From: Paenibacillus xylanexedens
Lineage (GTDB): Bacteria > Bacillota > Bacilli > Paenibacillales > Paenibacillaceae
Assembly: GCF_017874615.1 (NCBI RefSeq)
Contig: NZ_JAGIKV010000015.1
Coordinates: forward strand, 63,890-87,889
Direction: 5' to 3'
Length of the DNA: 24,000 nt
This document shows, piece after piece, positions 320-12,817 of the stretch (position 1 is the first letter of the stretch; every line of letters starts with the position of its first letter). A model generated the notes under the pieces. The model was not told where the DNA came from and made no database searches. It saw only the letters and a program-made list of their open reading frames with translations. A program made the translations under genes and the position numbers.

Positions 320-398
320 TCTGTTTCATCTCCTCTGGATTAGATGTCATACGCTGAACACATAGGTTTACACTCGGCCACTGCGCGGTCAGAATAAT

Positions 399-506
399 CT
401 TCCGATCGCTGTTATCCCCAGATTTTTTTGATTATTTCCCTAGAGGGGAAATCCGGGGATAAAGGCGAGCGCTTCGCTTCTTCAGATTTCTTCTGCCCTC
501 TCCGTT
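399..506. repeat. Interspersed palindromic repeat, family A, copy 1
   Basis: Starts CTTCCGATCGCTGTTATCCCCAGATTT and ends CGCTTCTTCAGATTTCTTCTGCCCTCTCCGTT. The outer arms TTATCCCCAGATTT / AAATCCGGGGATAA are near-complementary. The inner hairpin is TTTCCC-TAGA-GGGGAAA. Related copies lie at 2503-2613 and 18623-18721. Confidence 0.8.
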
Positions 507-562
507 ATCGTGTAAATGTTTAATTCAACTAAGAAGGACATCGCAAATCCTGTCATTTTTAG

Positions 563-904
563 TGTGACTATTAAGGGGCTTAGTAACTCTGTTATTTCGA
601 TTGCAGTGCCATCTTCAATTACCATGGAACCCCATATTCCCCTCGTTTCTATAGTGAAATCCAGGAGCAGAGAGTGTGTACTGCGTTGTTTTGGATTGGT
701 TTTGCGTTCTCCGTTTTGGCGTAAACGCTTAGTTTAACTGTGAGGGGCACAGTAATTCTGTTATTTCGAGTGCGGTGCCCTCTCCCAGTCACTATGGAGC
801 CCCATATTCAATCGTTTCTATAGGGAAATTCCAAGGGTAGTGAGAGTGCGATTCGTTACTTTAGATTGGTTCTGCACTCTCCGTTTTGGAGTAAACGGTA
901 AGTC
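563..904. repeat. Tandem duplication, two ~169-bp units (family B)
   Basis: Unit 1 (563-735) and unit 2 (733-904) align over their full length, for example GGGGCTTAGTAACTCTGTTATTTCGATTGCAGTGCC versus GGGGCACAGTAATTCTGTTATTTCGAGTGCGGTGCC. Both end in TTCTGC-N-CTCTCCGTTTTGG-N-GTAAACG. GGGGC sits at 575 and 744, giving a period of 169. Confidence 0.85.
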
Positions 905-1020
905 TTCTATAGGGTGTGTCTTCAACTTCAGTTCAGGGAAGATATACGATGATGGATGTCGGCGTTTAAAGCGTCTTAAAATACAGGCCAGTTTATCCTG
1001 GTGAATAGGTAAAGTTTTTT

Positions 1021-1217
1021 CTAAGGAACACAGGGCGTCTTATTTAGCCTTTTGGTCCTCTTTTTAAATTGTAAGGAACATCAGACACGTTATTTTCCGA
1101 AATTAGCTGGTTAAAACGCTGTAAACTGCTGTTTATTCTCATATAGCGTGTGTCAGGTTCCTTAGATTTCTACTGGAGCTTCAGCTCCTTAAATAAGACG
1201 CCTCAGATTCGTTAGCG
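1021..1217. repeat. Nested inverted-repeat element (family C; MITE-like or long-hairpin element)
   Basis: There are four copies of a ~26-nt motif arranged as two direct then two inverted. They are CTAAGGAACACAGGGCGTCTTATTTAG (1021), GTAAGGAACATCAGACACGTTATTT (1070), rc-oriented ATAGCGTGTGTCAGGTTCCTTAG (1143-1165) and TTAAATAAGACGCCTCAGATTCGTTAG (1189-1215). Outer pairs with outer and inner with inner. A GGAGC-TTCA-GCTCC hairpin lies at 1175-1188. Confidence 0.7.
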
Positions 1218-1376
1218 CTTGCTCCCTACTCTGCTCCATCGGAGAGCGGGAAGGACGAATCCATACCCGCCCGGAGCGGACCTTTTCATTGAAAAGGAGC
1301 GAAGTGCTCATAACTTTTAATGCTACGGGAGTAGTAAAGTATAAAAGTAGAGCATCCCCTTAATGCAATGCCCCTT

Positions 1377-11466: not shown

Positions 11467-11801
11467 TGATTTCCCTCCTGATTGTCATCCCCATATCTAC
11501 GAATCGCTATATATAAAATGAACTAACCAAGCGCACACTCATTTTATAAAAAGAGATTCTATGATCTGGTAGATTCACTTGTACATAGTCTCATATTAAC
11601 AGATTCTATAGAAGAAATTAAATTAGATTTGTGCTTTTGAGAAGAAATTACCCTAACGTCAAAAGTTGCAGACACAATTACGCCGTTCCACGATGTAAGA
11701 ACACGCTCATTCAATCAATTATTCGTTAAGAATACAATGATTCAAGGATAATATTTAGGGAATTATTTCCGATAAACGTATGGATAATATCTCTCATTTT
11801 G

Positions 11802-11829
11802 TTGAACTAAAAGGCTTTTGTGGTATACT
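11802..11829 (+). promoter_or_regulatory. sigmaA-type promoter with extended -10
   Basis: TTGAAC (11802-11807), a 16-nt spacer whose last three bases are TGG (extended -10 TGn), then TATACT (11824-11829). It lies just upstream of the tandem repeat units. Confidence 0.6.
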
Positions 11830-11842
11830 AGTGATATCAACA

Positions 11843-12060
11843 AATTTGGAGCGTACTGTGCTCACCAGGGTTGCAACCCTTGGTTCCACTCCGCAGTGGA
11901 CTTTAAATAAGATGCGGAATAGAGTAATTAGTTGCATAACACACGGTAATACGGAATATACTATATTTGGACCCTTAGGGTCACTGGGGAAGGCGACCCC
12001 TAGTTCCACTCCGCGGTGGACTTTAAATAAGACGCGGAACAGAGCTTTTAGTCGCCACCA
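11843..12060 (+). ncRNA. Two tandem ~120-nt structured repeat units (candidate non-coding RNA; possible RNA antitoxin or cis-regulatory leader)
   Basis: The conserved cores are 11862-11935 and 11981-12055, with TTCCAC at 11884 and 12004 (period 120). Each core has hairpin P1 (CCAGGG..CCCTTGG versus CTGGGG..CCCCTAG) and hairpin P2 (TCCAC-TCCGCR-GTGGA). Each P2 loop is complementary to a downstream hexamer (TCCGCA/TGCGGA and TCCGCG/CGCGGA). Substitutions between the units are compensatory. Confidence 0.6.
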
Positions 12061-12074
12061 TATTATAATTGTGA

Positions 12075-12107
12075 AGGCGCTGGTTCTATCTACCTAGCGT
12101 CTTTTTT
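12075..12107 (+). terminator. Modest intrinsic terminator between the repeat RNA and the downstream CDS
   Basis: AGGCGCTGG - 10-nt loop - CTAGCGTCT forms 9 bp including two G-U pairs, followed by a T6 run (12102-12107). Confidence 0.5.
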
Positions 12108-12139
12108 AGTTTGTAAATAGAAACTGTGAGGGAACCTAT

Positions 12140-12817
12140 ATGCTCGAAAGGATATCACATGTCCACGACTTAAACTCACTAGATGTAAAACCAAGAATAG
12201 ATCAGATTAACCTAAAATTGCTCCTCGACTACTACATAAGCTATCTATTACCATATCGATTTACATACCACTTGGGAGACGGCTCCGTACTTCACTTAGA
12301 TTTTAACAAAGAAAACTTTTGTCATCTTGTAGGCTTACAAAGTATTGTCAATAAAACTTTGAAGGAACGCGCAGCTTCAAAATATAAGGGCATGCCAGGT
12401 TTCAATGGTGTTATGAACGGTATAATTACGTTTGAAGATTTAAAAAAGAAAAACAAGGGTGGATTCAATAGTGTAAAAAGTAAATTAGTTAATTTCCATC
12501 TCATTCCCAAGCTACTTATGTCTTCAACACAAGTCGTTTACTACACTCAACCTGTTAATAGTATTAATTGTGCCCTATTAATATTTGATGTGTATCACAA
12601 TGCTTACATCCATCTTGGAATAGATAAAATAGTGGAAGGAACATATGTAGCAAGAACGTTTCTTATCGAACCGATAACACAAAAAAATTCGGGCACTACG
12701 TTCATTGATGGTCAAAAAGGACCCATACCCATTGTTAAGACCTTAAAAATGTTAAGACCCGATACACAAGTAGCCTCTACTGCTATCAACATCTCTGAAT
12801 CATCAGATAACTATTAA
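12140..12817 (+). CDS. hypothetical 225-aa protein; tentative BECR-fold (PBECR4-like) nuclease or toxin candidate
   Basis: GAGGGA RBS (12128-12133) lies 6 nt before the ATG. The ORF is AT-rich. Motifs include DFNKENFCHLVGL and NAYIHLGI. No signal peptide or TM segment is apparent. The family assignment comes from memory of an F-x-HL-x-G motif in PBECR-type proteins and is unverified. Confidence 0.75.
   Translation: MLERISHVHDLNSLDVKPRIDQINLKLLLDYYISYLLPYRFTYHLGDGSVLHLDFNKENFCHLVGLQSIVNKTLKERAASKYKGMPGFNGVMNGIITFEDLKKKNKGGFNSVKSKLVNFHLIPKLLMSSTQVVYYTQPVNSINCALLIFDVYHNAYIHLGIDKIVEGTYVARTFLIEPITQKNSGTTFIDGQKGPIPIVKTLKMLRPDTQVASTAINISESSDNY

Follow-up and report, generated by a model that had tools for sequence, protein, structure and literature searches.

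We found that two tandem 120-nt repeat units in Paenibacillus xylanexedens are copies of a previously uncatalogued, evolutionarily conserved double-pseudoknot RNA, which lies between a promoter and a terminator just upstream of a gene for a predicted toxic RNase (PBECR4). Given this arrangement, the covariation of its helices and its tight linkage to the gene, the RNA is most likely the antidote of a new type III-like toxin-antitoxin system, a reading to which we assign a probability of about 0.55; the toxicity and RNase activity of the protein, its binding by the RNA and the processing of the transcript are inferred. The units lie in a stretch of 24,000 nucleotides (contig NZ_JAGIKV010000015.1, positions 63,890 to 87,889), hereafter the window, and all coordinates refer to it.

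Structure of the two units and their surroundings

The original prediction held that the differences between the two units are compensatory for a hairpin, P1, and for a pseudoknot between the loop of a second hairpin, P2, and a hexamer 17 nt downstream (PK2), and this was confirmed. All 17 of these pairs are standard in both units, three change on both sides (C-G to U-A, A-U to G-C, and A-U to G-C), and none is broken. The aligned core has 12 differences in 66 positions, and random placement of 12 substitutions gave three or more compensated double changes in 73 of 100,000 trials (P about 7e-4), although this value is optimistic given that the structure was chosen after seeing the data. The repeat itself has a 63-nt core at 84% identity with 120-nt spacing and was not listed by Tandem Repeats Finder. 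Interestingly, a second pseudoknot, PK1, had been missed: the P1 loop pairs with a pentamer about 55 nt downstream, which adds two more compensatory changes (U-A to G-C and A-U to G-C). Each unit is therefore a nested double pseudoknot, in which P1 and its distal partner enclose a compact H-type pseudoknot made of P2, PK2 and an A-rich linker, and each starts with a hairpin, P0, of a different sequence. A hairpin of different sequence is found at the same place in other loci.

Table 1. Features of the two units and of the downstream gene in the window (all on the + strand).
Position	Feature	Details
11802..11829	Sigma-70-type promoter	-35 TTGAAC (11802-07), 16-nt spacer, extended -10 TGgTATACT (-10 hexamer 11824-29); transcription start inferred near 11836
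11849..11863	Unit 1, P0	GAGCG/UGCUC
11865..11883	Unit 1, P1	C11865-G11883, C66-G82, A67-T80 and GGG68-70 with CCC77-79, one bulged T; loop UUGCAA carries the PK1 5' strand (TGCAA, 11872-76)
11885..11900	Unit 1, P2	TCCAC/GTGGA; loop TCCGCA (11890-95) is the PK2 5' strand
11901..11912	Unit 1, A-rich linker	CUUUAAAUAAGA; loop 3 of the P2/PK2 H-type pseudoknot
11913..11918	Unit 1, PK2 3' strand	TGCGGA, pairs with 11890-95
11932..11936	Unit 1, PK1 3' strand	TTGCA, pairs with 11872-76
11937..11969	Spacer between the units	ATACGGAATATACTA (11949-63), a degenerate copy of the PK2 3'-strand region ATGCGGAATAGAGTA (11912-26)
11970..11982	Unit 2, P0	GACCC/GGGUC
11984..12003	Unit 2, P1	C11984-G12003, T85-A02, G86-C00 and GGG87-89 with CCC97-99, T01 bulged; loop AAGGCGA carries the PK1 5' strand (GGCGA, 11992-96)
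12005..12020	Unit 2, P2	TCCAC/GTGGA; loop TCCGCG (12010-15) is the PK2 5' strand
12033..12038	Unit 2, PK2 3' strand	CGCGGA, pairs with 12010-15
12052..12056	Unit 2, PK1 3' strand	TCGCC, pairs with 11992-96; part of the minimum-free-energy fold of unit 2
12073..12107	Intrinsic-terminator-like hairpin and U tract	GAAGGCGCUGG/CUAGCGUCUUU, 10-nt loop; hairpin 12073-12104, 35 nt before the ATG
12128..12132	Ribosome-binding site	GAGGG, 7 nt before the ATG
12140..12817	PBECR4 gene, putative toxin	225 aa

The promoter is a consensus match only (9 of 12 positions, with TG before the -10), and the same promoter sequence is conserved in four related loci (L001 and L032-34). The terminator hairpin folds at -7.2 kcal/mol (z -2.9), and its equivalent in L001 folds at -19.8 (z -5.4). 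It was detected with a scan of our own, as the loop exceeds the 8-nt limit of the standard terminator scan. The downstream ORF encodes a PBECR4 domain protein, the only Pfam hit (PF18813, E 5.9e-16, 59.8 bits against a cut-off of 27). An exhaustive search found 194 representative relatives, almost all stand-alone proteins of about 200–230 aa. His62 was invariant in 61 sequences and lies in helix 57-63 of the AlphaFold2 model (pLDDT 95.3), in line with the conserved N-terminal-helix His described for PBECR domains by Iyer et al. (PMC5512222). However, the protein had no PADLOC or NCBIfam hit, and no significant solved-structure neighbor was found by sequence profile or by Foldseek, which gave no match below E 0.1 against the PDB. 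Neighboring genes in the window (a GH3 glycosidase and LtrA) are housekeeping-like and are the same in Paenibacillus vandeheii.

Covariation across related loci

The original prediction also argued that the compensatory differences reflect selection on RNA (or single-stranded DNA) structure rather than a decaying duplication, and proposed a covariation analysis of homologous units, which supported selection on RNA structure. A covariance model built from 23 units and containing only P1 and P2 found 33 units at E below 1e-6 in 114 kb of related loci, all of them on the gene strand just upstream of PBECR4 genes. On this alignment, 86.5% of cells were paired, against 73.8% in shuffles (0 of 500 shuffles reached the observed value), and the covariation score was 0.406, against 0.208 in shuffles and 0.06–0.16 when partners were slid by 1–3 columns. 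P1 was 88% paired across the family, with 4 of 6 pairs changing on both sides, and the family consensus P2, UCUCC/GGAGA, differs from that of the window by two double changes. Both MAFFT and the covariance model leave the window-type P2 5' strand one column out of register, so that the eight unpaired rows for P2 are an artefact, and P2 was therefore checked directly.

All four helices covary. Given that the pseudoknots were absent from the model, the alignment was not fitted to them, yet PK2 showed pairs 36:58 (GC 16, UA 15), 37:57 (GC 19, CG 8, UA 4) and 38:56 (CG 22, AU 4, GC 4), and PK1 showed pairs 18:76 (AU 19, GC 9, GU 2, UA 1) and 17:77 (AU 28, GC 3). RNAalifold, run on the same alignment, predicted exactly PK1 and PK2. 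The original prediction had cautioned that, with zero-length connecting loops, terminal pseudoknot pairs may need to open, and this was borne out: only the four inner PK2 pairs are conserved across the family, and the fifth forms only in the window-type units. A second set of 102 units, found by DNA pattern, gave the same result as the first alignment, with PK1 again covarying (pair 17:80, AU 26, GC 24). Single-stranded DNA is an unlikely alternative, as the frequent G-U pairs (P1 8:24, GU 20; P2 33:39, UG 13) make sense only for the + strand as RNA, and the units lie between a promoter and a terminator.

The model did not detect more divergent units, including those of the Bacillus type, which carry an extra hairpin between PK2 and PK1. 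A descriptor scan of 14 divergent loci nevertheless found the four helices with entirely different sequences, for example CGUGG/CCACG, CGUAG/CUACG, GCUAC/GUAGC and GAUGG/CCAUC for PK2, and GGUGA/UCACC, GAAACA/UGUUUC, UGGAUGG/CCAUCCA and GGGUAGC/GCUACCC for PK1. In 12 of these 14 loci the score exceeded all 30 dinucleotide shuffles, while in the other two it did not. In contrast to the helices, unpaired nucleotides were poorly conserved between subfamilies: UAAAUA in the linker was nearly invariant in two of our alignments (A7 and A8), but the linker was A-rich and variable in the Bacillus-type loci.

No Rfam 15 family matched the window, at gathering score or at E up to 10, and in 20 related loci the only hit was Bacillus-plasmid RNA, elsewhere in one locus (L015) and on the other strand. 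ARAGORN found no tRNA or tmRNA. Full-text searches, which did not cover the contents of two 2026 preprints (on genome-language-model ncRNA mining and on BECR classification, neither among the papers containing "PBECR4"), revealed no paper linking PBECR4 or BECR-fold toxins to an RNA antitoxin.

Linkage to PBECR4 and stand-alone copies

DNA of the protein relatives, retrieved through exact-protein look-ups, tblastn on plasmids and a genome scan, gave about 40 distinct loci, from hosts including Paenibacillus, the Bacillus cereus group, Heyndrickxia, Oceanobacillus, Halobacillus, Sporosarcina, Brevibacillus, Lachnospiraceae and Anaerovoracaceae. A tblastn search of phage records gave no match. 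Essentially every intact gene retrieved was preceded by a 240–700-nt non-coding stretch holding the same RNA design, on Paenibacillus chromosomes, on Bacillus, Halobacillus, Sporosarcina and Brevibacillus plasmids, and in Lachnospiraceae and other Clostridia. All 36 loci scanned had a terminator hairpin with a U tract between the RNA and the start codon. The exceptions were decayed or rearranged: L055 is a gene fragment, an inserted RloB gene removes P1 in L009, and L054 has a 330-nt insertion. Many loci sit on plasmids or next to resolvases, integrases or Mob relaxases, and flanking genes differ from locus to locus, so that no protein antitoxin is evident. Two units were also present in L001, L007, L023, L024, L031 and L032-34, but most homologous loci have one full unit, and some Clostridia loci carry a mini-unit (P2 plus PK2 only) at the place equivalent to the spacer in the window.

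From the RNA side, a degenerate DNA pattern for the P2/PK2 region found 36 stretches in IMG/VR viral contigs and at least 120 in metagenomes, and the model confirmed 102 units in the 100 of these loci that were searched. Of the hits with enough downstream sequence, 50 were followed by a PBECR4 ORF and 30 were not, with no PBECR4 anywhere in the 1–14 kb examined around these orphans. Many orphans belong to one lineage of contigs classified as viral by IMG/VR, mostly about 75 kb long, where the RNA has its own terminator and faces a cI-like HTH gene beside a resolvase, with an IS3 transposase and a GIY-YIG endonuclease among the local genes. The 217-aa ORF upstream of the orphan RNA in viral contigs is not related to PBECR4. 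Orphans largely keep the fold, with PK1 89.6% and PK2 95% paired, against 99% for gene-linked units, and this slightly lower pairing leaves open that they could be relics of gene loss. A few copies precede other genes, namely a YhcG PD-(D/E)XK nuclease, a beta-CASP enzyme and a phosphoesterase.

Interpretation and comparison with known systems

A predicted RNase with no conserved protein partner, on mobile elements and with an obligatory structured RNA upstream, is best explained as a toxin with its RNA antidote, probably also acting in abortive infection. In the mechanism we propose, a constitutive promoter transcribes the units, each unit folds into the nested double pseudoknot, and most transcripts stop at the terminator, giving an excess of a roughly 270-nt RNA, while read-through produces a little PBECR4 mRNA. 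The RNase would be bound and kept inactive by the pseudoknot RNA, possibly after cutting the precursor into units. When transcription collapses upon phage infection or loss of the element, the RNA would decay faster than the protein, and the freed RNase would arrest the cell. The conservation of helices rather than of unpaired sequence is typical of an RNA co-evolving with a protein partner, and stand-alone copies with their own terminator are predicted by a trans-acting antidote or decoy but not by a cis leader.

The best-surviving alternative, although unlikely, is that the RNA is a cis-acting leader, either a riboswitch or a protein-binding attenuator, that senses a ligand or PBECR4 and sets how often transcription passes the terminator without neutralizing the protein. 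It does lie in the 5' leader, the terminator follows the last pseudoknot strand by only 4–25 nt in many loci, as in riboswitch leaders, and tandem aptamers with a single expression platform seem to have a counterpart in the glycine riboswitch. In the window, the unit 2 P1 loop AAGGCGAC and the terminator 5' strand GAAGGCGCUGG share AAGGCG, so the PK1 3' strand GUCGCC could in principle pair with either. However, this possible anti-terminator pairing is only 4 bp and was not found in other loci by visual inspection, unpaired nucleotides are not conserved across subfamilies as expected for a ligand pocket, mini-units exist, no Rfam riboswitch family matches, and 30 of 80 assessable copies lack a PBECR4 gene in the DNA examined but keep their own terminator.

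Less likely still, the RNA could be an independent mobile-element RNA with some other job and PBECR4 only a frequent passenger, given the copies that lack the gene or precede other genes, the plasmid and phage-like contexts, and the different plasmid RNA that lies nearby in one locus. Against this, linkage from the protein side is essentially complete, with fixed order, strand and spacing across very divergent sequences and hosts, chromosomes included, and RNA subtype (window-type, Bacillus-type and Clostridia-type) tracks protein subtype. A self-cleaving ribozyme or processing signal is very unlikely: nested double pseudoknots may be typical of small ribozymes such as HDV-like and twister, and the units occur in tandem on mobile elements, but no Rfam ribozyme family matches, no invariant unpaired core survives across subfamilies (the linker varies from CUUUAAAUAAGA to CACUAAUCUA to UGAAACU), and many loci have a single unit, so that nothing needs to be separated. 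Finally, chance pairing in a recent duplication of non-functional DNA, or in the ATG-started 105-codon ORF 11780-12097 that spans both units, is refuted by the covariation and slid-partner controls and by the ORF itself, which starts upstream of the promoter and is broken by stop codons or frameshifts in L001, L032, L033 and L034.

The order of parts in the window follows the criteria used to define type III loci, in which a toxin gene is preceded by a terminator, tandem repeats and a promoter, with pseudoknotted antitoxic RNA (PMC3401426). As in ToxIN, CptIN and TenpIN (PMC3401426; PMC5086642; PMC4627078), where ToxI and CptI pseudoknots are precedents, the loci sit on plasmids and other mobile elements in Firmicutes and no protein antitoxin is present. 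However, the putative toxin belongs to the BECR-fold family PBECR4 rather than the ToxN-like fold, with no ToxN, AbiQ or CptN chain among the Foldseek matches listed, so that the system is not a member of ToxIN, CptIN or TenpIN and is type III-like only by inference. The units measure about 88 nt (P0 to PK1) with a 120–140-nt period, against about 31–46 nt for ToxI repeats (longer for CptI and TenpI), each is a nested double pseudoknot rather than a single hairpin-type pseudoknot, and the copies number 1–2, have diverged and include partial mini-units. The characterized type III systems appear to use ToxN-like toxins, apart from the recent AbiF case, and a BECR-fold RNase neutralized by RNA would add a new toxin fold to the class and give a function to stand-alone PBECR4 proteins, which no paper we found has explained. 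The RNA itself is a well-supported structured family absent from Rfam, with an unusual topology, an H-type pseudoknot nested inside the third loop of another, and more than 100 units already offer enough sequence diversity for structure modeling. Its detection also shows that compensatory differences between just two repeat copies can flag a real RNA.

Tandem riboswitches and H-type pseudoknot aptamers, probably including glycine, preQ1-II and SAM-II, would share the 5' leader location, tandem structured domains, a pseudoknot with an A-rich loop and a downstream terminator, but here there is no Rfam match, no conserved ligand-pocket nucleotides and no conserved anti-terminator (by visual inspection), and stand-alone copies exist. 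These orphan copies on viral contigs resemble the pseudo-ToxI RNA of phage TE, an antitoxin-like RNA carried without the toxin that lets the phage escape the host system (Blower et al., 2012, as summarized in PMC5086642). We tentatively hypothesize that phages and other mobile elements of gut Clostridia carry stand-alone copies as decoys that disarm a host toxin belonging to a new family of type III toxin-antitoxin or abortive-infection systems, although the orphans could be relics. Lastly, in Clostridioides difficile, the RNA RCd22 carries two structured abiF motifs upstream of abiF, lowers toxin expression and neutralizes the protein in cis and in trans by direct binding (PMC12373285). The protein family differs (Abi_2, described in that paper as structurally linked to Cas13 ancestors, against BECR, with no Abi_2 hit in our protein), as does the RNA, given that the Rfam scans, which would include an abiF family if Rfam holds one, gave no match. 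Nevertheless, that system likewise has a structured RNA motif present twice upstream of a toxin gene, and it shows that type III-like antidotes need not be short exact repeats or pair with ToxN-like toxins.

RNA copies without PBECR4 or next to other genes

In addition to the copies linked to PBECR4 genes, we detected stand-alone copies of the RNA on IMG/VR viral contigs, mostly about 75 kb long (for instance locus L075; L numbers denote the loci analyzed). Each of these copies has its own terminator, lacks a PBECR4 gene in the stretch of DNA examined, and faces a cI-like HTH gene beside a resolvase, and they could represent either decoys or relics. In three other loci (L110, L088, and L069), the same RNA and terminator are followed by other genes, namely a YhcG/DUF1016 PD-(D/E)XK nuclease, a beta-CASP/metallo-beta-lactamase enzyme, and a calcineurin-like phosphoesterase, which may reflect toxin swapping or chance.

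Coordinates of additional features in the window and in related loci
Sequence	Coordinates	Strand	Feature
L075	5204-5290	-	Stand-alone RNA copy on a viral contig
L056-L063, L066, L068, L071-L073, L081, L086, L089, L090			Stand-alone RNA copies, as in L075
L110	RNA 2353-2427 with ORF 1204-2292	- (RNA and ORF)	RNA and terminator followed by another gene
L088	RNA 245-319 with ORF 838-2280	+ (RNA)	RNA and terminator followed by another gene
L069	RNA 712-787 with ORF 1215-2027	+ (RNA)	RNA and terminator followed by another gene
L040	1242-1312		Mini-unit
L043	1290-1351		Mini-unit
L046	1307-1361		Mini-unit
L009	74-853		Inserted RloB-family gene
L054	1140-1488		Extra non-coding sequence
L015	2163-2216	-	Bacillus-plasmid RNA (RF01691)
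Window	340-1370		Long non-coding stretch
Window	574-897		170-nt tandem repeat within this stretch
Window	11949-63 against 11912-26		Degenerate copy of the PK2 3' region in the spacer
Window	12003-12007 with 12036-12040		Extra helix GUUCC/GGAAC in unit 2

Variation in unit architecture

Mini-units made of only P2, the A-rich linker, and PK2 lie upstream of the full unit in some Clostridia loci, and the spacer of the window holds a degenerate copy of the PK2 3' region. In L009, an RloB-family gene is inserted directly upstream and removes P1 of the unit, leaving P2, PK2, and the PK1 3' strand, while in L054, from a Ruminococcus MAG, about 330 nt of extra non-coding sequence lie between the RNA/terminator and the PBECR4 gene. 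In unit 2 of the window, the minimum-free-energy fold uses PK1 and PK2 plus an extra helix that competes with P2. The hairpins and the long-range helices might therefore alternate rather than coexist. This extra helix is not conserved outside the window-type units.

Interestingly, the terminator stems of L007, L023, L024, L025, L031, L035-L037, L039, L045, L046, L048, L049, and L051 share sequence across distant hosts (GCUCUGAU...AUCAGAGC, or GGGUUCUG...CAGAACCC in others), indicating that the terminator hairpin may be part of the functional RNA.

Other non-coding elements

Elsewhere in the window, a long non-coding stretch with no Rfam hit contains a 170-nt tandem repeat (1.9 copies, 78% matches) and recurring boxes such as CTCCGTTTTGG-GTAAACG. 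A known RNA, the Rfam Bacillus-plasmid RNA (RF01691, 59.5 bits), was identified in L015, where it lies on a small Mob plasmid about 100 nt upstream of the promoter region of the PBECR4 RNA and is a separate element.
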